Shown: piece by piece, positions 3,658 through 39,492 of the stretch
Numbering within the stretch: the stretch's first letter is position 1
How the letters are laid out: every line of letters starts with the position of its first letter
Source: an uncultured Pseudomonadales bacterium
Lineage (GTDB): Bacteria > Pseudomonadota > Gammaproteobacteria > Pseudomonadales > UBA7434
NCBI GenBank assembly: GCA_964504585.1
Contig: CAZDEW010000004.1
Location: forward strand, 4,052-68,051
Reading direction: 5' to 3'
DNA length: 64,000 nt
Position numbers and translations under genes: made by a program
The notes under the pieces: model-generated
Told to the model about the DNA's origin: nothing
Seen by the model: the letters and a program-made list of their open reading frames with translations, nothing else
Databases searched by the model: none

Positions 3658-3669
3658 GCCCTAATCACC

Positions 3670-4232: not shown

Positions 4233-4233
<1 letters not shown>
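3670..4233 (-). CDS. pilN: type IV pilus alignment protein PilN
   Basis: 187 aa starting MAKINLLPWREERRE, the conserved PilM-binding N-terminus, then one TM segment. The start overlaps the pilM stop by 1 nt (TAATG). Confidence 0.9.
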
Positions 4234-5294
<1,061 letters not shown>

Positions 5295-8299: not shown

Positions 8300-8514
8300 A
8301 AGCGAGGATCGGCTGTCTCAACGCCAGCCCTGTAGCGGGGCTCAGATAAAAAGCAAGAGAGTCAGGAAGGCGGGAAATCTTTCTGGCTGGCGGGGCGCCA
8401 ATGCATTTTTTCTTGGAGCGCTAGATGCCACCCGCAGGCAGACGAGAAGTGATGCCACTCCCCGCCTGGTGAATCAAGTAGATTGAAAAAGGAATACTGG
8501 GAGCGATCGGACGA

Positions 8515-8739
8515 TTAGGCCTGATCGCGCTTGGTGCTGCGGCTGCCAAAGCGTTTCTTGAAGCGATCGACTCGGCCACCCGTATCCAGAACCTTTTGCT
8601 TACCGGTATAGAAGGGATGGCAGTTTGAGCAAACGTCAATCAGGAAGTCTTTGCCAAGAGTCGACCGGGTTTTGTAGGTTGCGCCGCAGCTGCAGGTCGC
8701 TGTGACCTCTTCGTATTTAGGATGGATGTCTGCCTTCAC
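8515..8739 (-). CDS. rpmE: 50S ribosomal protein L31 (Zn-ribbon form)
   Basis: 74 aa: [29 protein letters not shown]. Confidence 0.97.
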
Positions 8740-21214: not shown

Positions 21215-21963
21215 TGTCTGACCTCGAACAACCGTTAGTCGCCCATCTGTTGGAGCTTCGAGATAGACTCCTAAAGAGCTTGATTGCTATCGCAGCAGTT
21301 TTCCTTTGTCTTGTACCGTTTGCCGGCCCGCTGTACACATTTTTTGCTGCACCAGTGCAATCACTTTTGCCCGAGGGCACCAGCATGATTGCGACCGATA
21401 TCGCTTCCCCATTCTTTGCACCCTTTAAACTAAGTCTGGTGCTGGCATTTTTTCTATCGGCACCGCTGTGGCTATACCAGGTCTGGTCTTTCATAGCGCC
21501 GGGACTCTACACACAGGAGAAGCGTCTAGCGACGCCTATTCTGATTAGCAGCGTCTTGCTCTTTTATTTAGGTATGGCGTTCTGTTACTTCGTCGTTTTC
21601 CCGATCGTGTTTGGGTTTTTTACCAACATCGCACCCGAGGGAATCGCCGTCACACCCGACATCAATAGCTATTTGAATTTTATTTTGAAGCTATTTTTCG
21701 CCTTCGGCCTGGCGTTTGAAATCCCTATAGCAACCGTTATCTGCATTCGAAGCGGAGTCACGACGGCAGAAAAGCTAGCGGCGAAACGCCCTTACGTCAT
21801 ACTCGGGTGTTTCGTATTCGGGATGTTGTTGACACCGCCCGACGTCATTTCCCAATCACTGCTTGCAATACCCACCTGGCTATTGTTTGAAGTTGGGCTG
21901 CTAATGTCGCGCTTTGCGGTAGCGCCGGCAGGTGAAGGCGACAATCAACGAGGCGAGGCTTAA
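21214..21963 (+). CDS. tatC: twin-arginine translocase subunit TatC
   Basis: 249 aa with six TM segments and an N-terminus PLVAHLLELRDRLLK. The GTG start overlaps the tatB stop (TAGTG). Confidence 0.95.
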   Translation: MSDLEQPLVAHLLELRDRLLKSLIAIAAVFLCLVPFAGPLYTFFAAPVQSLLPEGTSMIATDIASPFFAPFKLSLVLAFFLSAPLWLYQVWSFIAPGLYTQEKRLATPILISSVLLFYLGMAFCYFVVFPIVFGFFTNIAPEGIAVTPDINSYLNFILKLFFAFGLAFEIPIATVICIRSGVTTAEKLAAKRPYVILGCFVFGMLLTPPDVISQSLLAIPTWLLFEVGLLMSRFAVAPAGEGDNQRGEA

Positions 21964-25338: not shown

Positions 25339-27108
25339 GTGAGTCAGCAACTTACCAACATCACGCGCGCAAAGGGCAATCTCGACGAGGGACCATCCAA
25401 CGTCAGGCCGACTCTGCGGAAAATTTTACAACACCTGTACCCGCAGTCTTTTTTTCTTGGCCTTTCTATCGCCGGCTTCGCCATCTATGCGGTTACCCAG
25501 CCACTCTCTGCGGTTCTTATTGAGTGGCTGATTAAAACACTGGATGGCGAATGGCAGGAAGGCGTGGTCCTGCTCCCGCTTGCCTTTATAGCAGTTGCGG
25601 TGGTGCGTGGTGTCGGCACCTATATGGGTAGCTACTACATTTCGAAAGTATCACAGAGAATGATTGAGAGCATTCGAAAAGACCTGTTCAATAAAATCAT
25701 TCACCTACCCCTGGCAACGTTTGATCAGGCCAAAAGCGGTCGCTTTGTATCGCTGTTTACCTACAATTCTAATTTGATGGCTAACAACGTGGCGAAGTCG
25801 GTAACAGTCGTTGCACAGGAAGGCCTTACTGTCATCGCCCTACTGGCTTATCTTTTCTGGTCAAGCTGGCAGTTAACGCTAGTCTTTCTCCTTATCGTCC
25901 CACCAATCGCCCTGATCGTTAATTACGTCGGCAAGGTGATTCAGTCTTTAAGCAAAGACATACAGAACTCGATGGCCGAGCTAAACAGTACGGTCACGCA
26001 GTCTTTTTCCGGCATAAGACTTATAAAAACGTCTTCGGGTGAAGAACAAACCAAGAAACACTTCGGCAGCATAGCATCTGAAACAAGAAAGCTTGCCCTG
26101 CGCATTAGCAAAGTCAACTCTATTTATACCCCTTCGATGCAGATCCTGATTGCCTGCGCTATGGCGGTACTGGTCGTGCTAGTAATCCGCTTCCACGGCG
26201 AAATGGAAACAGCTGCGTTGATCGCCTATGTGACGGCTGCAGCCTTACTATCAAAGCCCATTCGCTCGCTCAGCAAAGTTCATGTCAATTTGACCAGAGC
26301 CGTGGTCGCTGCGAATGAAGTTTTTGCGTTTATGGAGCTTCCCCCGGAAAAGAATAGTGGAACAGTAATAGCCGATAATATTCAAGGGAATATTGAGTTT
26401 CGCAATGTAGTCCACCGCTATGCCGATGACGGCGAACCCATCTTGAACGACCTCAGCTTCACAATTGGGAGTGGCGAGACCATCGCTTTGGTGGGTCACT
26501 CTGGCGGAGGCAAATCAACCATCGCCAACCTTGTACCGCGGTTTTACAGCCTCGAGTCCGGCGAAATCTTGATTGATAACATCAATATTGAAGAGTACGA
26601 GCTATCTTCGCTGCGGAATCAAATTGCGCTCGTACCGCAAGAGGTGCATCTCTTCAATGCGAGCATTAAAGAAAACATTGGCTACGGCATAGAAGCAGAC
26701 CACGACGATATTGTTGCTGCTGCAAAGAAAGCCAACGCTCATGAGTTTATAAACGACCTCAAAGGCGGCTATGATGCAAGAGTTGGCGATAACGGCGTGT
26801 TGCTGTCGGGCGGTCAGCGACAACGTCTGGCCATTGCGCGAGCCATACTTAGAGACGCGAAAATACTTATACTGGACGAGGCTACTTCGGCGCTCGATAA
26901 CAACTCTGAGCGATTAGTACAGAGCGCACTCGAGGAGCTGCAGTCTGATATAACGACCATAATAATTGCCCACCGGTTAAGTACAATTGAAAGCGCGGAT
27001 CGGATTATTGTTCTTTCGAAAGGAAAAATAGCAGAGCAGGGCGATCATGCCTCTTTAATGGCGATTGACGGATTTTACGCAAGCCTGTTAAAAATGAGTG
27101 CTGACTGA
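25339..27108 (+). CDS. msbA: lipid A export ABC transporter/flippase MsbA
   Basis: 589 aa with an N-terminal 6-TM domain. Motifs are Walker A GHSGGGKST, signature LSGGQRQR and Walker B ILILDEATS. It sits in an LPS context. Confidence 0.88.
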   Translation: MSQQLTNITRAKGNLDEGPSNVRPTLRKILQHLYPQSFFLGLSIAGFAIYAVTQPLSAVLIEWLIKTLDGEWQEGVVLLPLAFIAVAVVRGVGTYMGSYYISKVSQRMIESIRKDLFNKIIHLPLATFDQAKSGRFVSLFTYNSNLMANNVAKSVTVVAQEGLTVIALLAYLFWSSWQLTLVFLLIVPPIALIVNYVGKVIQSLSKDIQNSMAELNSTVTQSFSGIRLIKTSSGEEQTKKHFGSIASETRKLALRISKVNSIYTPSMQILIACAMAVLVVLVIRFHGEMETAALIAYVTAAALLSKPIRSLSKVHVNLTRAVVAANEVFAFMELPPEKNSGTVIADNIQGNIEFRNVVHRYADDGEPILNDLSFTIGSGETIALVGHSGGGKSTIANLVPRFYSLESGEILIDNINIEEYELSSLRNQIALVPQEVHLFNASIKENIGYGIEADHDDIVAAAKKANAHEFINDLKGGYDARVGDNGVLLSGGQRQRLAIARAILRDAKILILDEATSALDNNSERLVQSALEELQSDITTIIIAHRLSTIESADRIIVLSKGKIAEQGDHASLMAIDGFYASLLKMSAD

Positions 27109-27284: not shown

Positions 27285-28157
27285 CTAAGACACAGAATCC
27301 AGTCGCGGCGCTACGGCTTCATAAGGTGCCGCATATAGCAAGCCATCGCTAATGAAATAAATCCAGTTCGAATTGGGCGTTTGCCAGTCGCTGCCATAAC
27401 GCAAGGCTAGGTATTCAGACGATCTCTCGGGTACGTTCACTGTGCACCCCAGAAAACTGTGCGACTTTACCGAGTTGAAATATTTTGCAGGTACAACCCA
27501 GGTATAGGATGCCCAGTGGCGCCGAGCATCTGGATGACTCACAACATCGAAACGGTCAGCCTCTCGACGCGTTGGAATCGCACGAAACCTACGGCGCGCC
27601 CATGCTTTATAGTAGGCACGGTAGAGAAACCGAGCAACTTTGTTATTAAAAAATCGAATGCTCCCCTCTCCCGCGACAGATGCAAGCTTGGAAACGGAAA
27701 GATCGTTTAGATCCAACGCACCCTCTCGCTCAAGCAGCTTATCGGTATGCTTTCTGGCAGCCTCGACATACCAGGTCCCATGGGGCCAAAAGATTGATCG
27801 AGCGAACTTTACTATTTGGGGGGAGCACCAAAAATCACCGTGGCGATAGTAGCAGTGAGCATGAATATCTAAAGAGGGGCGCTTGTCGGCCCATTCCAAA
27901 TTCACGCCTTGCAGCTTGCCCTTATACAACTTCTTCTTAACCAGAATGTCTCGCTCAAGACATTTCTGCTCAAGCATGGCGACACGCTGCTCGTCACAGC
28001 GCAATATACCAAGATCGATATCGCTATCATGAGACAGCAGATCACCACCGCGAATTATACCCAGCAACGTCCCGCTATCGGCAAAACACTCAACATTGCA
28101 TTCGGCCATTATCTGGCTAACAACATTAAGCAACTCTCTGGAGTTCTCAATAGACAC
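27285..28157 (-). CDS. LicD-family phospho(no)transferase (nucleotidyltransferase-fold)
   Basis: 290 aa. The N-terminal pattern CFADSGTLLGIIRGGDLLSHDSDIDLGIL matches the LicD signature (GTLLG..R......D.D.D). It is the last gene of the phosphonate operon, 9 nt after the ADH stop. Confidence 0.7.
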   Translation of the reverse strand: MSIENSRELLNVVSQIMAECNVECFADSGTLLGIIRGGDLLSHDSDIDLGILRCDEQRVAMLEQKCLERDILVKKKLYKGKLQGVNLEWADKRPSLDIHAHCYYRHGDFWCSPQIVKFARSIFWPHGTWYVEAARKHTDKLLEREGALDLNDLSVSKLASVAGEGSIRFFNNKVARFLYRAYYKAWARRRFRAIPTRREADRFDVVSHPDARRHWASYTWVVPAKYFNSVKSHSFLGCTVNVPERSSEYLALRYGSDWQTPNSNWIYFISDGLLYAAPYEAVAPRLDSVS

Positions 28158-28166
28158 TAAACATCC

Positions 28167-29285
28167 TCATCCGCTGAATACATAGTCGATATCTGCTGGT
28201 GTCAGCCTGACGGGATTGTTCCCTAAACGCTGCTGATTAACTGAAGCAATCACCTCATCCAAATCGTAATCGATGCCCGAAAGATCTTGCGTTGTGCCCA
28301 GCTGGCTGATGAGGTCCGCAAGCCAATCAGAGGCTTTCGCATCACCCAAACCAAGTAGCTCGCGCAATTCCCGCATCAGCTCACGAAATCTCTCAGCCCC
28401 CATAGGGTGGGTAATTTGCTCATCAGGAGCTTGCTCATGCACATCAAAAATTCGAGGCAAGGTAAGACCTACAGCAGCGCCATGAGAAACATCATGAAAG
28501 TAAGTGAAATAATAAGAATAAGCATGCGCGGCTGTGGTCTTGCTGATATCAATAGCCCTTCCGGCAAGATTGGCCGCCTCGAGCAAGGACTGTAGGTCTT
28601 GCGGCAACATTGTGTCGATAGACTGTGGTAACAAGAAAGAAAGTTTCTCTATCGCGCTCCGAGCGAAGCCCCGGCTTTCATCAGTCGCCCCATTAGACCA
28701 GAAAGATTCAACAGCCTGGGCCAACGCATCAATCGCGCAAGAAGCGCGCTGTGGGAGTGAGCAGGTCTCGATAAAACGCCCATCCAAAAAAGCCATTGAA
28801 GGACGCAAGATCTGAGAGGCGAGAGAGAATTTTCGGGAGCCCTGGTAGACTACAGCAAAATGGGTAGATTCACTCCCTGAGCCAGCAGTGGTGGGAACAG
28901 CCAGCACCGGGCATAACACGGAATCTATTTGAATTTCTCCCCGCAAGCAGGGTTCAATCTGGCTGTCTTCAAGCGGTGCAAAGCCTGTCATTGCTTTGGC
29001 GAGATCCAGAATCCTTCCACCACCTATCGCAATCACTTGCTGTGGCTTGAAAGCACGAAGCTTAGGCAGCGCCGCACGCACTTCATCAAGTTGCGGCAGC
29101 GAAGAGCTCGACGACACGAGCTCCACTTCAAAGTGCGTGGATAAATCCTCTAGAAGCGTGGAAATTGCCTGACTCTGCGAGGAAGAGGCGCCGACAACGA
29201 TCGCAACGCGACGAATCGCCGAAGCGGAAAGATGCTCTGGAATCTCCGCCGCGCATCCATAGTGACTGAGAATTTGCTGAGCCAT
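28167..29285 (-). CDS. group III iron-dependent alcohol dehydrogenase, probable phosphonoacetaldehyde reductase
   Basis: 372 aa with GGGRILDLAK, PTTAGSGSE and the His cluster HAYSYYFTYFHDVSHG. It lies immediately downstream of PepM and Ppd. The fold is confident; the substrate is inferred from context. Confidence 0.75.
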   Translation of the reverse strand: MAQQILSHYGCAAEIPEHLSASAIRRVAIVVGASSSQSQAISTLLEDLSTHFEVELVSSSSSLPQLDEVRAALPKLRAFKPQQVIAIGGGRILDLAKAMTGFAPLEDSQIEPCLRGEIQIDSVLCPVLAVPTTAGSGSESTHFAVVYQGSRKFSLASQILRPSMAFLDGRFIETCSLPQRASCAIDALAQAVESFWSNGATDESRGFARSAIEKLSFLLPQSIDTMLPQDLQSLLEAANLAGRAIDISKTTAAHAYSYYFTYFHDVSHGAAVGLTLPRIFDVHEQAPDEQITHPMGAERFRELMRELRELLGLGDAKASDWLADLISQLGTTQDLSGIDYDLDEVIASVNQQRLGNNPVRLTPADIDYVFSG

Positions 29286-29298
29286 AAAGTGTGCCGAA

Positions 29299-30414
29299 TC
29301 AACTACCCATGAATCGTGGTTTCAGTGAAGTCATCGCTTCTTTCGGGCGCCCTATTCCTTCCCGGTTTCCTGGGTTCACCAGAATCTCGACAAAAGACGT
29401 CCCTGAACTTTCGCGGGCCTCGGTTACCGCCTGTTCAATCTCCACAGCACTTGAAACGCGACGGGAGAAACTATAGCCGCACATTTTAGCAAACTCCGTA
29501 AAATCAAAATCAGGACCGACGGTCTCCTGACCTCCAACAGAGTCGTGCACACCATTATTGAATAAAATATGCACAAACCCTGCGGGCGCCTGCTTTCCGA
29601 TTGCCACCAGCGAACCCAGGTGCATCAACGCAGCCCCGTCGCCATCCAAACACACCACAGGCGCCCCGTCGAGCGAGGCCGCTACACCAAGCGCGATGGT
29701 GGAAGCGTGGCCCATACCACCCACGGTCATAAAAGCACGAACATCGAGCAACTGATTGGTATTTTCATAGAGTTCTCGCGAAAGCATGCCGGTTGTTGAA
29801 ACGATCCTCACTTTCGGATCAATGGCTCCAAGCGCCACCCGCAAAGCCTCTTCCCGCGACATCAATGTCTCAGAGAGGCAGCGCTTAGGTTCGATCTGGC
29901 TCTTTAGCGAACCCTTAGGTACCAGAATCGCCACGGGGGTGGACTGAGATTTTGCAACATCGACAAGCTCATCAACCATATCATCGATTTCCCCATCGTC
30001 AGAGCAAACTACTCGATATGGGATGTCAAGACTGTCCAGAATAGACTCGGTAATTCGCCCCTGATGAACGTGCTGTGGCTCATCTTTCGTACCCGGCATT
30101 GCACGCCACCCAATGATCAAGACCATCGGAATTGAGTACACTTCCGGGCTAGCAAGCGATACAAGCGGATTGATCGCGTTACCCAGTCCGGAGTTTTGCA
30201 TGTATACCGCTGAAATCTCTCCAGTTGCAAGATTGTGTCCGATTGCATGAGCCACGGCACCCCCTTCGTTTGCAGCGACAACATGCCTATCCTCGCCGAA
30301 AACTTCGGCAGCCGTGACGCAAAAGCCCGACAACACGGAATCTGGCACCCCGACCAGCCTGGTAACGCCTCTCGAAAGCAGGCAGCTCGCGAGCTTCTCA
30401 CTCTCAATCGTCAT
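29299..30414 (-). CDS. ppd: phosphonopyruvate decarboxylase (ThDP-dependent)
   Basis: 371 aa with LVGVPDSVL, ANEGGAVAHAIG, YMQNSGLGNAINPL, GGMGHASTIALG and LDGDGAALMHLG. It starts 3 nt after the PepM stop. Confidence 0.85.
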   Translation of the reverse strand: MTIESEKLASCLLSRGVTRLVGVPDSVLSGFCVTAAEVFGEDRHVVAANEGGAVAHAIGHNLATGEISAVYMQNSGLGNAINPLVSLASPEVYSIPMVLIIGWRAMPGTKDEPQHVHQGRITESILDSLDIPYRVVCSDDGEIDDMVDELVDVAKSQSTPVAILVPKGSLKSQIEPKRCLSETLMSREEALRVALGAIDPKVRIVSTTGMLSRELYENTNQLLDVRAFMTVGGMGHASTIALGVAASLDGAPVVCLDGDGAALMHLGSLVAIGKQAPAGFVHILFNNGVHDSVGGQETVGPDFDFTEFAKMCGYSFSRRVSSAVEIEQAVTEARESSGTSFVEILVNPGNREGIGRPKEAMTSLKPRFMGS

Positions 30415-30417
30415 CTT

Positions 30418-31719
30418 TTATCTCGGCGGCAACAGTTTAAGGATCTGCGAGATTGACATGATCTCGCTATTGGCCTCGTGTGAACGCGTGTGCTCAAGTA
30501 TGCTCTCGGCTACGCTGACCATGGCGGGATAGGCCGCGCGCAACAGGTGATTCGCATAAATGACAATTGATACTCCCGCCTCACACAATTCGGCCTCAGT
30601 TACAGTGTTATAGCTAGAGGGTACTGCTATTAGCGGCTGCGTGTAGCCGCGCTTGCGGAATTCAGCGGCAAACTCCAGAACTTCCGCTGGATCCGATTTC
30701 GCACTGTGTATCATGACCCCATCAGCCCCGGCTTCAATGTAAGCCTCTGCGCGCTGCATGGCATCGTCTTGGCCTTTGTCGAGGATAAGGCTTTCGATCC
30801 GAGCAAAGAACATGAAATCGTGCCCTACCTGCGCACGCTTTGCAGCGCGAATTTTGTCGCAGAAGTCCTCTATAGAGGCCTGCTCCTGCTTTACTGTTGT
30901 GCCAAACAAAGAGTTTCGCTTGGGACCAACTTTATCCTCAAGTACAACAGCCGATACACCATGGCTCTCCAATTCGTAAACCAGAAACGGTATGTTGTCT
31001 ATGCTTCCGCCCGAATCGCCGTCATAAATAATTGGAATAGCAGTAACTTCACACATATCCCGAATCACTGACAATCTTGCACCAGTGTCTACAACTTCGA
31101 TATCGGGACGCCCCCGTGAAGTCGCGTCGGTGAGTGAGCTGCACCATAGCGCATCGAAGGCGCGCACTTCTTTGCCAACGGTATGTTTTGCAGTTCCAGC
31201 AACCAGAGCGCTTAGCCCGCTGTGTGCCTCGAGAACCCTTACAGTATCTTTCGCATCGAGCAGCCGGCGAAGAAGTCCGCGGCGAAAGTCCGCGGTAATA
31301 CCACGCTCGGAAATACTCTCAATCAGCTGCGTTGAGGAAACACCCGCTGTGTAGGGCACATCTACGACCTGACCGCCCCACTTACTGATAACGTCAATAA
31401 CGTTACGACGTGTATCAGCTTGCACCCCTTCCTTCCAGTCATCGCCGTGCACGACGAAATCAGGCTTCAGACTCTCGAGGTTTGCTGTGTAATCGAGCGT
31501 CTCTTGTGGGATGACCTGCGCTACTCCCTTGATGTTCTCGACGACCGTCTTCCGCTCCTCATAGGGCATAAGCGGCAACCGCTTGTACTGGGCAATGGCA
31601 CGGTCGGTAAGCAAGCCAACCGTCAGCTCACCCAGATCACGAGCATGTTTAATGATATTAATGTGCCCGTGATGCAGTACATCCGCACAAACACCCGCGT
31701 ATACCTTTGGTTTTGTCAT
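30418..31719 (-). CDS. bifunctional cytidylyltransferase / phosphoenolpyruvate mutase (Fom1-like fusion)
   Basis: The N-terminal ~135 aa is TagD/ECT-like ([41 protein letters not shown]). The C-terminal domain is a PEP mutase with the diagnostic [10 protein letters not shown] block (30910-30939). I prefer the ATG at 31719, preceded by GGAGAAACT, over the track start at 31770. Confidence 0.85.
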
Positions 31720-32211
31720 AGTTTCTCCGAAGATTTTCCCTGAGCCCGATGGGCACTGAAGAGCAAACACCTGTAAAAACGATTATCTATCTGTGGGATC
31801 GAGCCAATACTGAGACTCGATTGGAAAGCGAGGGTTAACTCGTGGCATATATGCGTTAAGACGGCAGTCGCCTGATGCAACCACTACCCAGCTGAATATC
31901 TTTTAATCAGTAAGATTTTATGCCGTGGAAGTAAGCGTTTATCGAGCCAGCCCCACAGGTCAACATGGTGTGACGAAGCCGCGAATGCTACTCGATATAA
32001 AAAACCATAACAATTGTAGATCGGCTATAAAAATCCACGGTTTAGGCAGCTATATTGCACTGTGAAGAATTGCTTATCGGAGCAGCATTTGCGTGCATTT
32101 TGTAAAGCGGCAAAGAGACCGTAAGCAGGACCAAAACACTTTGGATATTTAGCGGATAACGTCGCTGGCAAGTCAGCTAATTGTGGAAGTAAACTGGAGA
32201 GAGGTCGGCCA

Positions 32212-34815
32212 TCAGAAAAAGATAGCTTCTTTTAGAAAATCTTCTAACTCGCCATAACCGAGCAGCGCATCAAGCACTCGGTGTCCCACCTCGCCCTTAC
32301 TCGAAGAAATGGGGCGTATTTCCCCATCAGTAACCTTGGCAACCAACTGCGCGAACTTTGCGTCACGCTTGTCGTCTCTGGCGTGACTCAATACTATTTC
32401 CGCACGACCACCACGCACTTTTTCGATAAGTAAAAGAGCAGCTTTTAGCAAAGCTTTTGACTTCTGTTTTTTAAAGCGTGGGAAACGACCGCCAATAGAC
32501 AAAACTCGTCGGACCTTAAAACGCAGTCCGGACACGATTGCCATATAAGCGCCAGCGCTACTTCCAATAGTTCTCAGCTCTGCATGCTCTTCTAAAATTT
32601 TTTGTTTACCAAGCCATCGAATAACCTGTCGTTCACTGGATCCTAACGAAGGAACACCGTCGGAATAGTTCTCGCCAAGTGGCTCCGCTATGATTAAGAA
32701 ATTGAACCTGGACGCGTCAGCGCACTGAAGCAGGGCGAAATTCGGGATAATCAATCGTCGTCGCCCACGCATCGCAAAACAAATCACCAGAACTTTTTTG
32801 GAAGAGTCGCCACCACCATCAAACAAGGTCACCGTTGGCGCAATCTTTCTGGGCTGATAACGCTGGAAGCTCTCCTCGCCAACGCTCATCAACACTGAGG
32901 AAACACTGGTGAACCATAAATCCAGCGCATTTTGAAACTTCTCGTTTTGCACATCGACAAGATCTTTACGAGAGTGCTCATGCGCAAGAAAAGCTAGCTG
33001 CTCAGGTGCCAACCGATGCTCAAAAGTTTGCAAAGCTTTATTGAGCTGGCCTATTGAGCTGCATAGCCTGAATACCCTTCTGAAAGTTTTTACCAGCTGA
33101 GTATAGTGATCATCTAGACGTAACCGCTCTTTAAATCCTTCAGGGAGAATTTCACCGCCAACCCTGCCGGTTTCTGCACCCGCTGAAATAGTCGCCACCA
33201 ACTGACTTAACAGCCTATAATCAGCAAACTCGCCGGGATCTATCACCACATCAAACTGCATTTCAACAAGAATAAGCAGCTCCATCTGCGTCATAGAATC
33301 CATACCAAGTGTTCGCAGTTTTACATCTTCTTCACCCGCCTCAAATGCATCTAGACTGTCGCCTAGGAAGTCCATGACTGACGGCAAACCTCTGATAGCC
33401 TCACACAGTCTCGTGCGGACATCACCGAACCGCCCGCTAATAGCCAAAACCTCTTGCCGGTTAACCTTACCTGTCTCCCCTCTCGGCACCTTGTTAACCA
33501 GAATGAACTGCTTGGGGGATCGAGCACCAGCACGTGCGCTAACGAACCTTTGGATTCGCGAGAGTTTTGGCGGACTCGCATATTGATCAAACGCTAATAT
33601 TGCAATCGGAACGTCACCGTGAATACGCGATTTTCTGGGTACGACGGCCGCATCAGCCACGCCAGGATACTCCATGATGAGTGACTCAAGCTCCTGTGGA
33701 TAAATGTTCATACTGTTGAACACAAACATGTCATCCGAGCGGCCAAGAATAAATAGACTACCGGTCTGGTCGATTCTTGCGATATCCCCTGTACAATACC
33801 AACCATCTTTCACACTCTTTTGATAAACCTCCTCAGCACCCAAATAGCCTTCGAACATGCCTTCACCACGCACGAATAAAACCCCGGGCTGGTCAGGCTC
33901 GACCACAACGCCAGCAGCATCTCGGCACTCAAGCTGAAGACCATTCAAAGCGCGACCAACGGACTCGGACTCAACAAACTCGGAAGTGTGCGCAAATGCG
34001 ATTGCTCCCGTCTCGGTAGTTCCGTATCCGAAGCGCAGATTCGGCGTTAGGGAATCTGTTAAAAGTTTTCTCGTCTCGGGTGATACATGCGAACCACCGA
34101 TTTTCAAACCTATACTTTGTAATCGATGAGCATCAGCATGACGAACCAGAGATCGCGCCTGGTACTCAGATACATGAAGCGTCTCTACATTCAAGCTAAT
34201 GCACTGATCCAGCAACTCATTACTGTCAAGAAAAACATTAGTAGCTCCACGGGCCATCACATAAAACCTGTGCCGCTTTGAAAAATTATGCTCAACGGAT
34301 GCGATACAAGCGAATCTTTCGTGCTCGTTATCGACATGCCTATGTGCCTGAGCGATCAGCCCAGCGCTACTGTGAACAACAATCTTCGGCTTTCCCGAGG
34401 TGCCGGACGTAGAAAACAGTAGTTGTGCGTTGCCGAGATCGCCGACATGCGTATTATCCGGAACAGTCCCAGAGAAACCCGAGGCCAACTGTTCCACTAA
34501 AAAAAAACGAGTGCCAGCCGACTCGAACACTGAAGTATCAAAGGCCATCTCAAAAGTAGGAATCGTAAAAGTTGTCGCCTCCAATCGCATACCAGCTAAA
34601 CAAATAATTAAGTGTTCGATGTCGTTGGCGCAGCGAATACCCATGACTGCCGCGGAGGTAACACCCAGAGACAATAATTCATTGGCCTCTGCCTCGACCA
34701 TTGCAGCAAGCTCCGAGTAAGAAATCGATCTCTCAACTGAAACCAGAGCATCCCGGTCGGGGGTAGACAGAGCCTGTTGATACAATAATGAAACGATATT
34801 TTTAGGGCGTTGCAT
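32212..34815 (-). CDS. tridomain adenylation - carrier (T/PCP) - alpha/beta-hydrolase-like enzyme
   Basis: 867 aa. Adenylation motifs are LLFSTSGTSGKPKIVVHS, GYGTTETG, WYCTGDIARIDQTGSLFILGRSDDM and PRGETGKVNRQE. The carrier motif LGMDSM has its Ser codon at 33295-33297. The C-terminal ~300 aa carries a nucleophile elbow GSSAG (Ser codon 32557-32559), then candidate Asp (HARDD) and His (EVGHRV). Confidence 0.8.
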   Translation of the reverse strand: MQRPKNIVSLLYQQALSTPDRDALVSVERSISYSELAAMVEAEANELLSLGVTSAAVMGIRCANDIEHLIICLAGMRLEATTFTIPTFEMAFDTSVFESAGTRFFLVEQLASGFSGTVPDNTHVGDLGNAQLLFSTSGTSGKPKIVVHSSAGLIAQAHRHVDNEHERFACIASVEHNFSKRHRFYVMARGATNVFLDSNELLDQCISLNVETLHVSEYQARSLVRHADAHRLQSIGLKIGGSHVSPETRKLLTDSLTPNLRFGYGTTETGAIAFAHTSEFVESESVGRALNGLQLECRDAAGVVVEPDQPGVLFVRGEGMFEGYLGAEEVYQKSVKDGWYCTGDIARIDQTGSLFILGRSDDMFVFNSMNIYPQELESLIMEYPGVADAAVVPRKSRIHGDVPIAILAFDQYASPPKLSRIQRFVSARAGARSPKQFILVNKVPRGETGKVNRQEVLAISGRFGDVRTRLCEAIRGLPSVMDFLGDSLDAFEAGEEDVKLRTLGMDSMTQMELLILVEMQFDVVIDPGEFADYRLLSQLVATISAGAETGRVGGEILPEGFKERLRLDDHYTQLVKTFRRVFRLCSSIGQLNKALQTFEHRLAPEQLAFLAHEHSRKDLVDVQNEKFQNALDLWFTSVSSVLMSVGEESFQRYQPRKIAPTVTLFDGGGDSSKKVLVICFAMRGRRRLIIPNFALLQCADASRFNFLIIAEPLGENYSDGVPSLGSSERQVIRWLGKQKILEEHAELRTIGSSAGAYMAIVSGLRFKVRRVLSIGGRFPRFKKQKSKALLKAALLLIEKVRGGRAEIVLSHARDDKRDAKFAQLVAKVTDGEIRPISSSKGEVGHRVLDALLGYGELEDFLKEAIFF

Positions 34816-34954
34816 CTGTTTTAGCTATAAGCCTAAATTTATAGATGGGCAATAGGTTTATGGGAAGTGAGGCTTCCCGCATGACTAGTTCCCGGCTTAA
34901 GTGATGTGTGAGTGCAGTCGTCACGCGAAAATCACGCCAGAGTAGTTACAAAAA

Positions 34955-36160
34955 TCACCGCGGAATCTTTTTTGAGTATCTTAGATACGTAGAAAACAAT
35001 CTCGCTATACGCTGCTTAAAACTGGTACGAAGATAAAGCCACCACCAAGGCAGATGTCTAACTGATTGGTAACGTTCTTCAATTAAGTTCGCCTGCAAAC
35101 TCAAAGATTCGCCCCGACTATCAAACACAGCATAATCTAGCAGCTTGCGACGATCCTGCTGCTTGTCATCGGTCGCCAAAGCTTGTCGTACAAAAGGTAG
35201 CAAGTCCTCGGAATGATCGATTACAGTCCCCGCCTGCCATACATACGTATTATCAGTAATCTGATTACCGGCCTTGTACCGTCCCGGCGCAGGGTTGGCG
35301 AAAAGAATCGGACGGTCAAAATGCAACCATTCGTAGCATACCGATGAAATGTCGGAGATCATGGCATCGCTTGCTGCCATATAGGGTGTGATGTCATCAT
35401 CAATCACAACCTTCACGTTTGCTTCATAACCCAGCTCTTCTATTAAATCTTTGACCCGATCATAGATGTCGATTTTGTCCGAAACCAACTTGCTATGAAA
35501 CTTCATAATTACATTGTAGTGACTGCCAAGCTGTCTCACGATTTCAAGAGACCAAAGTTGGATCGAGCTTTCACCATAGAGTGAACGCTCACCTAGCTTC
35601 ATACTAGTCACCGAGCTATCCCAAGTTGGCGCGTATAGAATGACCTTCCTATCCTCATCGAACAAACTTACTGGTGTAAGGCTTCCCTTATAAAATTCAT
35701 CAAATTTGGGATAACCTACTAGCTTCCAGCTATTGATATACGGCAACGTACCTGCAAGCTTTGCTTTATCTACAGCTTTCTGCCCGGGGAACAGGACAAG
35801 GTCGTAACAGGTGAGTCGAGCTGACTCTATATATCGCTTGTCTGACAAGCCCCCATGAAAAACCTGAACTGCTACACCACAGTAAAGAAGATGAAAACTT
35901 GGATAAACAATCAACCTCAATCTCAACTTAAACGCCAGCTTCCTTGCCTCTGCTCTATTTTCTACTAGCCGTATGTCCAGGCAATAATCCGAATATTTTT
36001 CATTAGCGCGGGCAAAAATACTGGTGTTATCGGTAATGATAACCCCACCAAGGCGTGGATATAGCCTGATAACTGGAGGCAGGTGTTGGATGTTCGAAGA
36101 CAAGTAGTAGCCAATTTTCTTATCCATACTTGCACTGGCCGACACTTCAGCATTCATCAT
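34955..36160 (-). CDS. TagB/TagF-family CDP-alcohol phosphotransferase (glycerophosphotransferase-like)
   Basis: 401 aa. ILYAPTWDSS and MAASDAMISDISSVCYEWLHFDRPILF match the Glyphos_transf pattern (YAPT[WF]R and D.LI.D.SS..F.....P). Confidence 0.7.
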   Translation of the reverse strand: MMNAEVSASASMDKKIGYYLSSNIQHLPPVIRLYPRLGGVIITDNTSIFARANEKYSDYCLDIRLVENRAEARKLAFKLRLRLIVYPSFHLLYCGVAVQVFHGGLSDKRYIESARLTCYDLVLFPGQKAVDKAKLAGTLPYINSWKLVGYPKFDEFYKGSLTPVSLFDEDRKVILYAPTWDSSVTSMKLGERSLYGESSIQLWSLEIVRQLGSHYNVIMKFHSKLVSDKIDIYDRVKDLIEELGYEANVKVVIDDDITPYMAASDAMISDISSVCYEWLHFDRPILFANPAPGRYKAGNQITDNTYVWQAGTVIDHSEDLLPFVRQALATDDKQQDRRKLLDYAVFDSRGESLSLQANLIEERYQSVRHLPWWWLYLRTSFKQRIARLFSTYLRYSKKIPR

Positions 36161-36248
36161 AAAAACCGAATTATTCTTTTACCCGACACAGCAGGGTGAT
36201 TGTATGTTGGAACTTGGAGTGTTGAAGGGCTGACTTGCCCGGCTCAGA

Positions 36249-37115
36249 CTAGCCACTGATCAGATTCAACTTCTCTCTTATTATTGTCGAACTAACGCTT
36301 GGCGTGTAGTCAAAGTAGATTACTTCACAACTAGTTTTTGGGTACTTGCCTTTCCAGTCGGAGCCTACGGATATCGCATCGATACCGAACTTATCTACCG
36401 CTGCTTGTTTATTTTTGTCGTGTTGCGGCACGACTTTATCCACATATGATATCTGCTCTACGATTGCTGCGCGCTCCTCATAGGGAATGACAGGTAGACG
36501 CCCTTTATCTTTTAAAATCAGATCGTCAACTGAAACGCCCACTATCAGTTCGTGACAAAGCTCTTTAGTGCGTCGCAAAATATTTAAATGGCCGTGATGG
36601 AATATGTCGAAACAACCCGTAGTGTACATCCTGTTGAATCGCTTATTCGGCTGCTGCTGCACGGCTACTGCGGCAAACTCCTTCTTCAGGACAGCCTTCA
36701 TCGCAGCGTGTTCTTCATCGCTCATCTCCAGCGACGTGGATAAATCACAGGGGCCCGGCCAACTGCGATCGAAAAATTCACGGCCTTGCAGCTTTTGAGC
36801 AGCACTATGACGCGGAAAGATATGGAAATGAACGTGCGGATCAACCATCATAAGCATGAGATAATTCGTCTTCTCATAACCCAATCTGCCCTTAAAAACC
36901 GCCTCGATAATCTTTACCAAATTTCCCTGTTCAATAACTGCGTCGGGGGAAATCTGGTCATACGCCGTGACATTTTCTTTGCAAACGAGAACAATAGAAC
37001 CGAGCGTCACCTGTTTGGGTCGATACAAAACCTCCCAAAAACGAGATGAAAAAATCGTCGATTCAGGAAAACCGAATTTGTCTAATGTGTCCTGGACATC
37101 CATAAAAGTGCTCAA
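36249..37115 (-). CDS. HIT-domain / TagD-like cytidylyltransferase fusion protein
   Basis: 288 aa. The N-terminal HIT histidine triad is PHVHFHIFPR (36825-36839). The C-terminal half is colinear with glycerol-3-phosphate cytidylyltransferase: TTGCFDIFHHGHLNILRR (HxGH at 36588-36599), VGSDWKGKY, TPSVSSTIIRE. Confidence 0.75.
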   Translation of the reverse strand: MSTFMDVQDTLDKFGFPESTIFSSRFWEVLYRPKQVTLGSIVLVCKENVTAYDQISPDAVIEQGNLVKIIEAVFKGRLGYEKTNYLMLMMVDPHVHFHIFPRHSAAQKLQGREFFDRSWPGPCDLSTSLEMSDEEHAAMKAVLKKEFAAVAVQQQPNKRFNRMYTTGCFDIFHHGHLNILRRTKELCHELIVGVSVDDLILKDKGRLPVIPYEERAAIVEQISYVDKVVPQHDKNKQAAVDKFGIDAISVGSDWKGKYPKTSCEVIYFDYTPSVSSTIIREKLNLISG

Positions 37116-37326
37116 GCAAACCCCACGCTGCGAAGCGGAATTTTACAATATAATGGCGAAATCCAACAAGCAAAGCCCTGCCCCACACGCCCGCTACAAG
37201 CAGCTTTGGTAACTTTTGCGGTGTTCAACGGAAGTTGCAGGATCAACTTCCCTATTGAGAGCCATGCCCGTAAAGTCCGTGCGCAGAGCATCACTTCAGA
37301 ACCGTATTCCTGATGCAAAGGCAATC

Positions 37327-38448
37327 ATGCAAACTCCGATAACCGATCAACCCCTTACCATCTATCTGGACACACCCAATCTCTACTATCTCCCTCAGTA
37401 CGAGCCGTTGATCAATGAAGCAATCCGAAGGGGCGCCAACTATAAAGTTGTCCTGTATCAAGACAAAAATCAGCTCAACACTCAGCGATCATGTCTCGCG
37501 AAGCATGCTGACAAGCTGATTTTAGTGGATGATGCAGAACAGGCTTCAAAGCTTTACGCGAAAGACAGACCTAACTGGGTGTTTTTTGGCAATAGCTTTG
37601 ATTATCTGGAGCTACTCCACGCGGACACGCATACCGCACAGCTAGGGCACGGCATCGGCCCAAAGCCAAGCTACTATCATAAATCTCGCACGGCGATGAC
37701 CGTCCGATTTATCGAAGGCGCACTAAGGCTCTCAACCATCCGCAAGCTCTATCCTGAACAAAACTTTGTTCAGGTTGGCTTTTGTAAGCTGGATCCCTTA
37801 TTCAACAGCAAGGCGGAAATGCAGCCACCTGAAAATTACAAGTTGCCGAAGGGCAGAACCACTTTACTTTATGCGCCAACTTTCAAACCGAGTTCGCTTG
37901 AGTGCTTTCCCGATAACTGGCCAGAGCACTTCGAAGAAACCAATATCTTGGTCAAGCCGCATCACTTTACTTATGAGAGAAAGCGCTATGAAAAGCAGCG
38001 CAGGAAGCTGGAAAAATGGTCTCGCTTTCCGAACGTCCACATTGCCAGCAAAGACGCCCTATCCTTGTTGCCGTACATGAATATTGCGGATCTGATGATT
38101 AGCGATGCCTCATCCGCAATTTTCGAATTTGCAGCATTAGACAAGCCTATCGTGCTGTGTAATTTCTTTAAGCTTCCATGGCACTATCGAGGTCCATTTA
38201 AATATCGTTATAACCGACGCTTCGTACAGGACGCTGTAGCCTATGAATCGCTTGCGCCGTTCGCCAGGAATTTTCAGGAGATGCACCGCCTAGTCGGCGA
38301 AGAACTAAAAGCACCCGAACGATATGCGCCGGCGAGACAGGCGTACACGCGAGATCATGTTGGAGACACCGACGGCAGAGCATCTGCCCGGATCCTCGAT
38401 TATATTGAGAACTACTCGGTAAACTCAGCTTCAGATCGAGCGAGTTGA
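37327..38448 (+). CDS. second TagB/TagF-family CDP-alcohol phosphotransferase
   Basis: LLYAPTFKPSS and MNIADLMISDASSAIFEFAALDKPIVLC. The start is uncertain: the track gives 37216, with ATGs at 37264 and 37327, and I use 37327 (MQTPITDQ). The 3' end overlaps the convergent GT9 gene by 18 nt. Confidence 0.68.
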   Translation: MQTPITDQPLTIYLDTPNLYYLPQYEPLINEAIRRGANYKVVLYQDKNQLNTQRSCLAKHADKLILVDDAEQASKLYAKDRPNWVFFGNSFDYLELLHADTHTAQLGHGIGPKPSYYHKSRTAMTVRFIEGALRLSTIRKLYPEQNFVQVGFCKLDPLFNSKAEMQPPENYKLPKGRTTLLYAPTFKPSSLECFPDNWPEHFEETNILVKPHHFTYERKRYEKQRRKLEKWSRFPNVHIASKDALSLLPYMNIADLMISDASSAIFEFAALDKPIVLCNFFKLPWHYRGPFKYRYNRRFVQDAVAYESLAPFARNFQEMHRLVGEELKAPERYAPARQAYTRDHVGDTDGRASARILDYIENYSVNSASDRAS

Positions 38449-39492
38449 AGAAAGCCCTATACCCTCACCGGCGACAACGCGATCCAGCATACGACAGACA
38501 TCATCCAGCTCAATCAGCGCCATCAAGTGGTCTCCTTTCGCCCGTTCGCCCCAACTTGGCGTAGTGTTGCTTCTGGTCTGAGACGCGATCGCATCGTGAT
38601 AAACACTCACCACATACTCCCTGTATGTATAGGGACCCGTCCGCTCGGGGTTACTATGGGCATAAAGACCCACCACAGGCGTCCCTTGTGAGACAGCCAT
38701 GTGCGCCGGGCCCGTGTCAGGGCAAACCAGAACACTTGCAAGACGCAGAAAATAGAGCATCTGAGACAGGGAGAATTTACCACTAACATTTTCGACAGGC
38801 ACTTTGCACGCCGCGAGAATTTGCTCGACAAATTCCAACTCTCTTGCCGCGGGGCCGGAGCATACATAAACATGAAAACCCCTTTCATGAGCGTATGAGG
38901 CTAGCGCCGCATACCGTTCCGGCAACCAGTTGCGCTCGAAATTCGATGCCACGGGCGCGATAACAAGACATGGTGCGGTACCCTGATGGAATTGCTCGAC
39001 GTACTGTGCATCTTTCGAATCCAGCGGAAAGCTCCACCGCAACTGAAAGTCTGGCAAACCCAGTGCTCGCGCGAATGCTTTAAAGCCGTCTACAACATGG
39101 GGGCGCTCAGGCATATCACACCGGGAATTGACGACTAGACCGTGTAACTCTTTGGACAGATGTCGCGGGAACCCGATTTTCTTTCGAGCCCTGACCAGCA
39201 AAGCCAGCGCATTTGCCCGCAGCGAGAGCTGCATATGCAGCAGCACATCAAAAACCTCATTGAGCTCTCTACGGAGCTTTAGGTATTCAGAAACGCCACG
39301 TGACTTGTCAAAAACGTAGAAGTCGATGCCGGGCAAGCTACTAACCAGCGCATACTCCGCCTTACCAATGATCCATGTTATGCGAGCATGCTTTTTTACG
39401 CGTTGAATTTCCTGCACCACGGCAACGGCATTGCAGACATCGCCAATGGCCGATAACCTAAGAATGCAAATTGACTCAGATGGCGCCGTCAT
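38431..39492 (-). CDS. LPS heptosyltransferase (glycosyltransferase family 9, WaaC/WaaF-like)
   Basis: 353 aa with ILRLSAIGDVCNAV at the N-terminus and VCPDTGPAHMAVSQGTPVVGLY near the C-terminus. It lies 17 nt downstream of hldE. Confidence 0.85.
   Translation of the reverse strand: MTAPSESICILRLSAIGDVCNAVAVVQEIQRVKKHARITWIIGKAEYALVSSLPGIDFYVFDKSRGVSEYLKLRRELNEVFDVLLHMQLSLRANALALLVRARKKIGFPRHLSKELHGLVVNSRCDMPERPHVVDGFKAFARALGLPDFQLRWSFPLDSKDAQYVEQFHQGTAPCLVIAPVASNFERNWLPERYAALASYAHERGFHVYVCSGPAARELEFVEQILAACKVPVENVSGKFSLSQMLYFLRLASVLVCPDTGPAHMAVSQGTPVVGLYAHSNPERTGPYTYREYVVSVYHDAIASQTRSNTTPSWGERAKGDHLMALIELDDVCRMLDRVVAGEGIGLSSTRSI

Follow-up and report, generated by a model that had tools for sequence, protein, structure and literature searches.

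Phosphodiester-linked substituents on the first heptose of the LPS core occur in some species of the genera Shewanella, Alteromonas and Oleiphilus. In S. pacifica glyceric acid is linked in this way to D,D-Hep, S. oneidensis carries another phosphodiester-linked group on D,D-Hep, and in A. addita a phosphodiester joins glucose to heptose (PMC4052302). Colwellia 34H has phosphoglycerol in its core, and the phosphoglycerol of its lipid A can be acylated (PMC8914368). Teichoic-acid-like capsules of Gram-negative bacteria are made by TagF-like polymerases (PMC5974469). For phosphonates, 2-hydroxyethylphosphonate (HEP) is made by iron-dependent alcohol dehydrogenases of the PhpC type (PMC8942020), CMP-HEP is the product of Fom1, and in the Pnt logic a nucleotidyl activation is followed by LicD-like transfer to glycans (PMC6697681). 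In the literature searched we found no report of a phosphonate in an LPS core. Here we describe a region of an uncultured, marine-type gammaproteobacterium, contained in a 64 kb stretch of DNA (the window). Inside an LPS inner-core locus this region combines, as a mosaic, three units that are distributed separately. The three gene sets probably decorate a short LPS with hydroxyethylphosphonate and polyol-phosphate groups, and possibly with an acyl ester.

The gene order in the window is gmhB-gmhA-msbA, eight intact ORFs, then GT9-hldE-kdkA-waaA-lpxL, with gmhB, gmhA and msbA flanking one side and the remaining core genes the other. The flippase gene msbA (25339..27108, plus strand; TIGR02203, 617 bits against a cut-off of 602) encodes the proposed exporter of the decorated product. 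The GT9 heptosyltransferase gene (38431..39492, minus strand) has a product 51% identical to the GT9 protein adjoining a TagF2/HIT-CT pair in Shewanella, and overlaps the 3' end of tagF2 by 18 nt. The coordinates confirmed that eight genes, seven of them on the minus strand, lie between msbA and GT9, and that the four phosphonate genes are spaced by 3, 13 and 9 nt; the domain assignments of all eight proteins were upheld by profile searches and structure models. A hydropathy scan of the eight proteins found none rich in transmembrane segments, and the set does not encode its own exporter or polymerase machinery. Between the phosphonate operon and the genes upstream lies a long gap of 441-492 nt (31771..32211), and it shows that these units do not form one operon; the eight genes therefore make up at least three transcription units. 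The gap, which presumably holds the promoter of the phosphonate operon, matched no Rfam family, and scans of it for consensus promoters and terminators performed no better than chance and found none.

The first unit is the phosphonate operon. It begins with the gene of CT-PepM, a bifunctional Fom1-type protein that joins a cytidylyltransferase (CTP_transf_like) to a PEP mutase (30418..31770, minus strand; TIGR02320, 374.1 bits against 319.55). Its likely start according to the gene call is the ATG at 31719, giving 433 aa, and it carries a [10 protein letters not shown] motif. Against the cytidylyltransferase (CyTase) domain of Fom1 (5x3d) its N-terminal domain gives an E-value of 1.9e-56, and against TagD one of 1.4e-10. 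The phosphonopyruvate decarboxylase gene ppd follows (29299..30414, minus strand; TIGR03297, 416.7 bits against 312.5), and 13 nt after it comes an iron-dependent alcohol dehydrogenase gene (28167..29285, minus strand) whose product has the Fe-ADH and ADH_Fe_C domains. The top NCBIfam family of this protein is TIGR03405 Phn_Fe-ADH (E = 2.6e-42, under the equivalog cut-off), and it is proposed to be a phosphonoacetaldehyde reductase yielding 2-hydroxyethylphosphonate, in the manner of PhpC (a role taken from PMC8942020) and FomC. A carbon-phosphorus bond pathway with a nucleotide-activation step, as claimed in the preliminary description, is thus present, PepM and Ppd scoring above their cut-offs and the CyTase domain being Fom1-like. 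The operon ends, 9 nt downstream of the dehydrogenase gene, with a divergent phosphotransferase of the LicD family (27285..28157, minus strand; Pfam LicD, 33.7 bits against 22.6). The Pfam match is limited to an N-terminal block, an alignment to FKRP (6kaj) spans the DSDIDLG block, and only three representative clusters were found at E<=1e-30; in the few relatives that the protein has, D27, D44, D46, D48 and a C-terminal YG..W block are invariant. Among 80 LicD loci from metagenomes, at least 11 carry CT-PepM too, with 42-57% identity, and Ppd and Fe-ADH are also present in seven to nine of these, the order in other cassettes being Ppd then Fe-ADH as here. Their neighbours are GT2 and GT4 glycosyltransferases and epimerases; the HEP cassettes found elsewhere belong to non-LPS glycan clusters. 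The pairing of such a cassette with TagF-like genes is not confined to this locus; it is also found in one of these clusters (L063).

The second unit contains a fusion of a HIT domain with a TagD-like cytidylyltransferase (HIT-CT; 36249..37115, minus strand, 288 aa; likely start 37103 by gene call), and it is the second CDP-alcohol-type cytidylyltransferase that had been predicted. TarD (2b7l) and TagD (1coz) match it at about E 1e-22, and in the AF2 model (pLDDT 89.7) the C-terminal domain superposes on TarD with a TMt of 0.85, while the N-terminal domain, which contains HVHFHIF, has a HIT fold and matches the HIT protein 3nrd with a TMt of 0.78. HIT-CT is the proposed supplier of a CDP-activated alcohol, and the identity of that alcohol is uncertain because the TagD-like domain scores under the equivalog cut-off (TIGR01518, 92.7 bits against 165.4) and reads YTPSVSST at the RTEGISTT signature. 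The HIT domain might serve in a GalT-like nucleotide exchange or in proofreading. Facing HIT-CT across a divergent intergenic region (37116..37326, with boundaries that vary with the start codons chosen) is the gene of the TagF-like phosphotransferase TagF2 (37216..38448, plus strand; Glyphos_transf, 74.8 bits), the likely start of which is, from orthologue lengths, the ATG at 37327, and to which TarL (8va1) aligns. TagF1 (34955..36160, minus strand; Glyphos_transf, 78.1 bits) is a CDP-alcohol phosphotransferase that has a single domain, falls in the size class of TagB/TarF and aligns with TagF (3l7i) over the PTW, His and SDxSS motifs. Together with the LicD-like protein, these two complete the three transferases of the LicD/TagF type that had been counted.

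More than 650 full-length homologues of HIT-CT exist at 50-58% identity, and the divergent layout with tagF2 is common to three loci, in Shewanella, Alteromonas and a 4.8-Mb metagenome contig. TagF2 is 49-53% identical to the HIT-CT-paired proteins of these loci (L053-L055) and is their orthologue; in Shewanella (L054) the pair abuts GT9-kdkA-waaA. TagF1 homologues (40-58% identity) were seen only alongside TagF2-like genes, and in three loci (L056-L058) they adjoin these together with HIT-CT or LPS core genes: L056 and L057 have HIT-CT or an MsbA-like gene, and L058 has hldE, GT9, gmhA, kdkA, waaA and lpxL. Taken together, orthologues of the second unit lie next to GT9, kdkA, waaA, hldE, gmhA, lpxL or an MsbA-like ABC gene, and no pepM was found in the TagF1 or HIT-CT loci. 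The statement that none of the eight genes belongs to the inner-core set does not hold for TagF2 and HIT-CT, which are regular there in marine Gammaproteobacteria.

The third unit is a single gene encoding an 867-aa protein (ATX; 32212..34815, minus strand; Pfam AMP-binding, AMP-binding_C and PP-binding), in which an adenylation domain resembling acyl-AMP ligases is followed by a carrier (T) domain bearing Ser507, then a helical linker and finally an alpha/beta hydrolase. The domain profile search assigned no family to the C-terminus; the hydrolase was recognised from an AF2 model (pLDDT 89.4) for which Foldseek returns alpha/beta hydrolases, with the capsule O-acetyltransferase CsaC among the fold matches. 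ATX retains every catalytic residue, and 26 homologues show no variation at Gly-x-Ser753-x-Gly, Asp818 or His845. Within its large family ATX is divergent and stands apart: it shares 34-39% identity with its relatives, which share about 50% with one another. A haem-oxygenase-like protein and a methyltransferase, both absent from the window, adjoin 32-35 of 40 ATX homologues, and this operon, unrelated to LPS, is normally the home of the family. None of the 40 loci contains another of the eight genes, and LPS, TagF and pepM genes are never neighbours of these homologues. The single eight-gene module of the preliminary description gives way to three separately distributed units, two of which recur as units in independent loci.

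On balance we lean towards reading the region as a mosaic decoration locus of the LPS/LOS inner core, with the enzymes of all three units acting on lipid A-core before MsbA. These would all be soluble or peripheral cytoplasmic proteins, and the likeliest acceptor is lipid A-Kdo(P)-Hep, which they would modify on the cytoplasmic side of the membrane ahead of the flip; the acceptor of every transferase in the locus is putative. Action at this stage, already suggested in the preliminary description, fits the orthologues adjoining LPS core genes in other genomes. From the family assignments, the first unit (31770-27285) would convert PEP to phosphonopyruvate (PepM domain), then to phosphonoacetaldehyde (Ppd), HEP (Fe-ADH) and CMP-HEP (Fom1-like CyTase domain), and the LicD-family enzyme may pass the HEP phosphonyl group from CMP-HEP to an acceptor hydroxyl, forming a phosphonate ester. 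In the second unit the TagD-like domain would supply a CDP-activated C3 alcohol, most likely CDP-glycerol and possibly a glycerate derivative. TagF2 would then place the first alcohol-phosphate on the inner core, probably on the first heptose, and TagF1 might add a second polyol-phosphate unit. The link between these genes and LOS chemistry is a genus-level correlation only. As its domains and invariant residues suggest, ATX may adenylate a carboxylic acid and load it onto its own phosphopantetheine arm; the Ser-Asp-His domain would then either hydrolyse the thioester or pass its acyl moiety to a hydroxyl. The explanation is at its weakest in assigning this hydroxyl to the Gro-P or HEP substituent.

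The separate distribution of the three units would also suit a narrower reading, in which only TagF2/HIT-CT, perhaps with TagF1, act on the LPS core and insertion at a variable hotspot for surface polysaccharides explains the adjacency of the rest; the HEP cassette would then target a different glycoconjugate, for example a capsule, exopolysaccharide or glycoprotein, whose synthesis is encoded elsewhere in the genome, and ATX would make or release an unrelated small molecule. Consistent with this are the generic glycan clusters that hold HEP cassettes elsewhere, the non-LPS partners usual for the ATX family, the long gap separating ATX from the cassette, and a G+C content that falls to 0.45-0.48 over 32-38 kb, compared with about 0.51-0.53 nearby. 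We nevertheless consider it rather unlikely, given that the 64 kb window contains no further genes for assembling or exporting a glycan, that the cassette sits between msbA and the core genes, and that L063 unites a HEP cassette with TagF-like genes in one cluster. The earlier proposal of a wall-teichoic-acid and D-alanylation parts list, that is, a teichoic-acid-like chain of poly(polyol-phosphate) that is assembled on a lipid acceptor, bears an aminoacyl (D-alanyl) ester of the Dlt type as well as a phosphonate branch, and leaves through MsbA, is correct as to the TagD- and TagF-like domains and the A-T protein, and it has the precedent of the Gram-negative capsules mentioned above. We regard it as improbable: both TagF-like proteins are single-domain and about 370-400 aa, a TagB/TarF size that lends no support to a long teichoic-acid polymer, they score 17-24 bits on the TarF and TarL equivalogs, for which the cut-offs are 550-1000, and the locus has no TagGH or KpsMT exporter. 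The analogy with DltA/DltC is weak, since there is no DltB or DltD at the locus, the usual partners of ATX are unconnected with LPS, and its adenylation domain scores 104 bits against 317 for TIGR01733, with MenE, 4-coumarate ligase (4CL) and FadD-type ligases (FadD13) as top matches, MenE and 4CL also leading those in the PDB.

Comparison with fosfomycin biosynthesis raises the last alternative, a free small molecule in place of a surface decoration, since CT-PepM, Ppd and Fe-ADH are the counterparts of Fom1, Fom2 and FomC (PMC6697681). The fosfomycin pathway, in contrast to this locus, has the Fom3 radical-SAM methyltransferase, the Fom4 epoxidase and a CMP hydrolase, and with an operon ending in a LicD-family transferase amid LPS genes we give this reading hardly any credence. 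In comparison with known systems, CT-PepM, Ppd, Fe-ADH and LicD are a HEP tailoring cassette of known kind, TagF2/HIT-CT and TagF1 are a conserved, uncharacterised accessory set of the LPS-core loci of Shewanella, Alteromonas and Oleiphilus, and the adenylation domain of ATX resembles acyl-CoA ligases and is unlike DltA.

Eight open reading frames, seven of them on the minus strand, lie between msbA and the GT9 heptosyltransferase gene, as the preliminary description had placed them, and each of its domain calls was upheld by Pfam and NCBIfam searches. They encode, in order of position, a LicD-family protein recognised by Pfam and NCBIfam (27285-28157, minus strand), a Fe-ADH (28167-29285, minus), Ppd (29299-30414, minus), CT-PepM, a cytidylyltransferase fused to a PEP mutase (30418-31770, minus), the 867-aa protein ATX (32212-34815, minus), which has AMP-binding and PP-binding domains and a C-terminus without family assignment, the Glyphos_transf protein TagF1 (Pfam; 34955-36160, minus), HIT-CT, a TagD-like cytidylyltransferase whose N-terminal region contains HVHFHIF (36249-37115, minus), and the Glyphos_transf protein TagF2 (Pfam; 37216-38448, plus). 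The likely true starts of CT-PepM, HIT-CT and TagF2 are at 31719, 37103 and 37327, respectively; from the ATG at 37327 TagF2 has 373 aa, its orthologues having 354-384 aa, and codons 1-37 of the TagF2 frame (37216-37326, with a TTG start) are probably untranslated. On one side the eight genes are bordered by gmhB, gmhA and msbA, on the other by GT9, hldE, kdkA, waaA and lpxL. Just upstream of gmhB lies a gene for a zinc metalloprotease of the reprolysin-like (M12B) type (590 aa, with a weak DUF11 repeat; 21901-23673, minus), a family that is uncommon in bacteria.

The ORF coordinates confirm that the phosphonate genes are spaced by 3, 13 and 9 nt. Because a gap of 441-492 nt separates this operon from its upstream gene, and because TagF2 and HIT-CT are transcribed divergently, the region consists of at least three transcription units. 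Rfam gave no match on the whole window, so that the 441-nt gap contains no known riboswitch; a consensus promoter/terminator scan returned fewer sites than it did in shuffled sequence and was for this reason left out of the operon definition. The G+C content is 0.45-0.48 across ATX, TagF1, HIT-CT and TagF2 (32000-38000), whereas it is 0.51-0.53 both in the flanks and in the phosphonate operon; a dip of this kind is typical of variable surface-polysaccharide genes. The 64-kb window holds only one GT9 gene, and no waaL, outer-core glycosyltransferase or capsule export genes were present among its scanned ORFs, which fits either an LOS that is very short or the presence of additional loci elsewhere.

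The phosphonate unit is a cassette of an already known type and, judged from the families of its proteins, very probably makes 2-hydroxyethylphosphonate (HEP) and CMP-HEP. CT-PepM scored 374.1 bits against the PEP mutase model TIGR02320 (cut-off 319.55), and the EDKxxxxxNS motif is present in its translation as [10 protein letters not shown]. Its N-terminal PF01467 domain matches the CyTase of Fom1 (5x3d; E 1.9e-56, 194.8 bits, residues 18-155) and reaches just 43.7 bits (E 1.4e-10) against TagD; Fom1 cytidylylates HEP, and 23.6% of Ppm proteins are PF01467-PepM fusions (PMC6697681). Ppd exceeded the equivalog cut-off of TIGR03297 (416.7 against 312.5 bits). The Fe-ADH protein, whose gene begins 13 nt after Ppd, carries the Pfam Fe-ADH and ADH_Fe_C domains and scored 144.9 bits against the phosphonate-type family TIGR03405, under the cut-off of 423.7, yet this was its top-scoring family. 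Fe-ADHs of the PhpC type convert phosphonoacetaldehyde to HEP, and the HEP type accounts for about 8.5% of pepM neighbourhoods (PMC8942020). The order Ppd then Fe-ADH recurs in comparison loci L061, L063, L093, L099 and L115.

The LicD protein belongs to a very divergent branch, from which only three representative clusters were reached at E<=1e-30. It scored 33.7 bits against PF04991 (gathering cut-off 22.6) over profile positions 5-57 only; the acidic DxD block, with D44, D46 and D48 invariant, and the C-terminal block are both kept. A metagenome scan with this protein alone as query gave no match, and a scan with a LicD alignment yielded 80 metagenome loci, at least 11 of which carried CT-PepM at 42-57% identity; in 7-9 of these CT-PepM-bearing loci Ppd and Fe-ADH stood beside the LicD gene. 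The surroundings of the metagenome cassettes contained GT2 and GT4 glycosyltransferases and epimerases. LicD-like transferases have been proposed as the next step in the "phosphonyl tailoring" of surface glycans (PMC6697681). We consider it probable that the LicD-type enzyme transfers the HEP group to a glycoconjugate, although it is from the operon partners only that we infer a transfer from an activated head group; the chance that LOS would be the acceptor is about even. In L063 the neighbours of the cassette are two TagF-like genes, one with a fused GT1 domain, and because this locus carries both, the pairing of CT-PepM with TagF-like genes is not unique to the window. In full, the stretch in L063 (1284-11611, one strand) encodes an 832-aa TagF-like/GT1 fusion, two LicD proteins, a TagF-like protein of 403 aa, an NTP transferase, CT-PepM, Ppd and Fe-ADH, with a Mu-transposase-like gene after them. 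By its gene content it resembles a cluster for a teichoic-acid-like glycopolymer carrying a HEP branch.

TagF2, HIT-CT and TagF1 are a widespread, unstudied accessory set of the core locus. TagF1 (78.1 bits) and TagF2 (74.8 bits) exceed the PF04464 gathering cut-off of 22.1, and their alignments to TagF (3l7i) and TarL (8va1) span the PTW/PTF, His and SDxSS motifs; against the TarF and TarL equivalogs they reached 17.5-23.7 bits, with cut-offs of 550 and 1000, and they share only 26% identity with each other over a local alignment of 187 residues. Full-length homologues of HIT-CT, a fusion protein of 288 aa, number more than 650; they share 50-58% identity with it and occur in Shewanella, Alteromonas, Kangiella, Psychromonas and some Bacteroidales, and those in named species carry only generic annotation. 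In all three loci examined HIT-CT was paired divergently with a Glyphos_transf gene 49-53% identical to TagF2; in Shewanella this pair lies directly beside GT9 (51% identity to the GT9 of the window), kdkA and waaA. Judged by gene neighbourhood the TagF2/HIT-CT pair belongs to the core locus of marine Gammaproteobacteria, and it is reasonably likely that these enzymes act on the inner core. Oleiphilus and Thalassotalea are among the taxa that hold the roughly 130 TagF1 homologues of 40-58% identity. The TagF1 homologues of L056, L057 and L058 each have a TagF2-like gene no more than about 1.5 kb away, and these loci also hold HIT-CT and an MsbA-like gene, or hldE, GT9, gmhA, kdkA, waaA and lpxL. 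Some loci with TagF2 and HIT-CT lack TagF1, the reverse was not seen among the loci examined, and TagF1 would thus be an add-on to TagF2, with TagF2 acting first. A second TagF1-like gene in L056 (7464-8653) is split into ORFs of 199 and 183 aa, adjoins the intact TagF2-like/TagF1-like pair and the MsbA-like gene, and is probably a decaying paralogue. In L054 (Shewanella; 2247-8587) and L055 (Alteromonas; 1721-5745) yjbEFGH-like genes lie within a few kb of the TagF2/HIT-CT pair, a Wzi gene is nearby in L054 and also in L059 (11280-12806), close to a TagF1 homologue, and L055 and L059 have a separate short TagD and another TagF-like gene; in these genomes TagF2/HIT-CT may be linked to a capsule-like polymer.

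The structure of HIT-CT was modelled with a pLDDT of 89.7. In the model the C-terminal domain superposes on TarD/TagD (2b7l; TMt 0.85, rmsd 1.4 A, 36% identity), and the HxGH motif is present as FHHGH. The canonical TagD signature is RTEGISTT; in HIT-CT it reads YTPSVSST, with the Tyr invariant in 28 homologues, and this change from Arg to Tyr may mark a distinct substrate class. Because the domain scored 92.7 bits against TIGR01518, under the cut-off of 165.4, and because its signature is altered, the alcohol which HIT-CT activates is uncertain. In the PepM-fused CyTase (30418-31770) the same position reads YTAGVSST. The modelled N-terminal domain has a HIT fold by Foldseek (3nrd_B; TMt 0.78, rmsd 2.4 A, E 2.4e-6), with 17.2 bits against the Pfam HIT family, under its gathering cut-off of 21.5. 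Of the HxHxHxx triad H96 and H98 (the second and third His) alone are invariant, the first varying, and any role of this domain is conjectural.

Published LOS structures contain chemistry that such enzymes might produce. In Shewanella LOS a phosphodiester-linked group is present on the D,D-heptose attached to Kdo8N, with glyceric acid in S. pacifica, and in Alteromonas addita glucose is joined to heptose via a phosphodiester (PMC4052302); both genera have a short, highly anionic LOS (PMC4052302; PMC3210612). Colwellia 34H has phosphoglycerol in its core, and its lipid A phosphoglycerol can be acylated (PMC8914368). No phosphodiester substituent was reported in the paper on the LOS of Shewanella sp. 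HM13, where the sample had strong alkaline treatment before analysis. The agreement between the TagF2/HIT-CT genes and phosphodiester LOS chemistry is correlative, at the level of genera, and does not amount to a demonstration. A literature search found no paper naming the enzymes for the phosphodiester substituent of the first heptose in Shewanella or Alteromonas, and a search on TagF-like enzymes that target the LPS core gave nothing specific. The generically annotated pair, which is 50-55% identical in named, culturable species of both genera, is a candidate for the unassigned LOS phosphodiester chemistry of some of them.

ATX is a unit on its own. The best families and structures for its adenylation domain are MenE, 4CL (4-coumarate), FadD and luciferase, not amino-acid adenylation domains, and the score against TIGR01733 was 104.5 bits (cut-off 317.4). 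The carrier domain scored 30.4 bits as PP-binding (cut-off 20.8), and its D506-S507, like the triad Gly-x-Ser753-x-Gly, Asp818 and His845, is invariant in 26 homologues. The model covering residues 470-867 (pLDDT 89.4) shows a canonical core of the alpha/beta-hydrolase type. With identities of 8-15%, Foldseek matched it to FrsA, acylaminoacyl peptidases, esterases, a capsule O-acetyltransferase (CsaC) and a putative thioesterase (2pbl). In marine Gammaproteobacteria ATX has more than 300 full-length homologues, at 34-41% identity, and this family of about 900-aa A-T-hydrolases is an uncharacterised enzyme family. None of 40 species-representative loci had another gene of the module within 10 kb of the ATX homologue; a SAM methyltransferase was directly upstream in 35 of the 40, and a PF14518 haem-oxygenase-like (HDO) gene accompanied it in 32, both of which partners are absent from the whole window. 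The window protein is 34-39% identical to its relatives, whose mean identity among themselves is 50%. Because of this outlying identity, the kept catalytic residues and the missing partners, ATX is a divergent, intact family member in a new context; a pseudogene or decayed insertion was rejected, every invariant catalytic residue being retained. The three-gene unit of PF14518 protein, SAM methyltransferase and A-T-alpha/beta-hydrolase, found in 32-35 of the 40 loci and mostly in marine Gammaproteobacteria, is exemplified by L003/L004 (8414-12712) and a further 31-34 loci among L005-L043, and has no functional name in any source; in Zhongshania a Sfp-type PPTase lies 8 kb downstream of it.

The region between msbA and the heptosyltransferase is a mosaic of three units, whose exact combination, the phosphonate and TagF sets with ATX, was found nowhere else. 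In the most economical reading lipid A-Kdo(P)-Hep would be decorated in the cytoplasm before the MsbA flip: one or two polyol-phosphate units would be added by TagF2 and then TagF1 from a donor made by HIT-CT, the LicD-like enzyme would add a HEP phosphonate ester from CMP-HEP, and ATX could possibly add an acyl ester. That ATX might acylate the same product as the other units is doubtful. We regard as quite improbable the strongest form, in which all three units act on one product, a heptose with one or two polyol-phosphates and a HEP ester cap, with a free hydroxyl acylated by ATX before the flip. The preliminary description had likened the locus to a wall-teichoic-acid and D-alanylation system with a phosphonate branch. 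The TagD/TagF chemistry of that analogy stands, but a polymer does not, because both TagF proteins are TagB/TarF-sized and no exporter is present; single additions are expected instead. The D-alanylation part fails because the adenylation domain is not DltA-like and neither DltB nor DltD is present: no DltB (MBOAT) or DltD domain was found among the eight genes, and a hydropathy scan upheld the earlier statement that no TM-rich protein is encoded there either. A single mobile module was rejected, the three units being separately distributed, as was a secreted fosfomycin-like product, the late fosfomycin genes being absent.

HEP and methylphosphonate have been described as the most abundant phosphonates in marine high-molecular-weight dissolved organic phosphorus (DOP) (PMC8931226). 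A HEP cassette between msbA and core genes makes LOS a testable, concrete candidate for the molecule from which such phosphonates come. If the single decorated product were true, it would, within the literature searched, be the first LPS core for which a C-P bond is reported, it would involve a new carrier-dependent LPS esterification without a membrane acyltransferase, and marine gammaproteobacterial LOS would be a source of the HEP esters abundant in this DOP.

Among known systems, NRPS-like A-T-TE enzymes have the same order of adenylation domain, carrier and Ser/Asp/His hydrolase as ATX, whose hydrolase domain differs in having no match to a Pfam thioesterase family. The HDO/methyltransferase/ATX operons share full-length homology with it, whereas the window copy is a sequence outlier without both partners. 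AlmEFG adds glycine to Vibrio cholerae lipid A. In this system, as in DltABCD and as proposed for ATX, a group borne on a carrier protein esterifies an envelope polymer or glycolipid; ATX, however, unites A, T and putative transferase in a single soluble protein, its A domain resembles acyl-CoA ligases, and its putative transferase is an alpha/beta hydrolase instead of an MBOAT (DltB) or LpxL-type (AlmG) protein. With TagD/TagB/TagF/TarF and the Gram-negative TagF-like capsule polymerases (Cps3D and relatives) the window shares the PF04464 domain, its conserved His, PTW and SDxSS, and a TagD-fold cytidylyltransferase encoded alongside. It differs in that its TagF proteins are short, single-domain, without a fused GT domain and placed in an LPS core locus, and in that the cytidylyltransferase carries a fused HIT domain and falls under the TagD equivalog cut-off. 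The Pnt and Lic pathways (LicC/LicD, phosphocholine on LOS or teichoic acid) likewise join a nucleotide-activated head group to LicD-type transfer to a glycan, and in Pnt pathways Ppm is fused to a nucleotidyltransferase (PMC6697681); but the characterised PntC is a PF12804 enzyme specific for AEP whereas the window has the PF01467/HEP branch, with a very divergent LicD at home in an inner-core locus beside msbA. Close in chemistry to the phosphonate unit is the Fom1/Fom2/FomC set of early fosfomycin synthesis in Streptomyces wedmorensis, where a PF01467 CyTase-PEP mutase, a Ppd and a Fe-ADH likewise lead to HEP and then CMP-HEP. Since the window locus lacks Fom3, Fom4 and FomD, ends in a LicD-family transferase and sits in an LPS locus, CMP-HEP is here expected to be a donor and not a transient intermediate.
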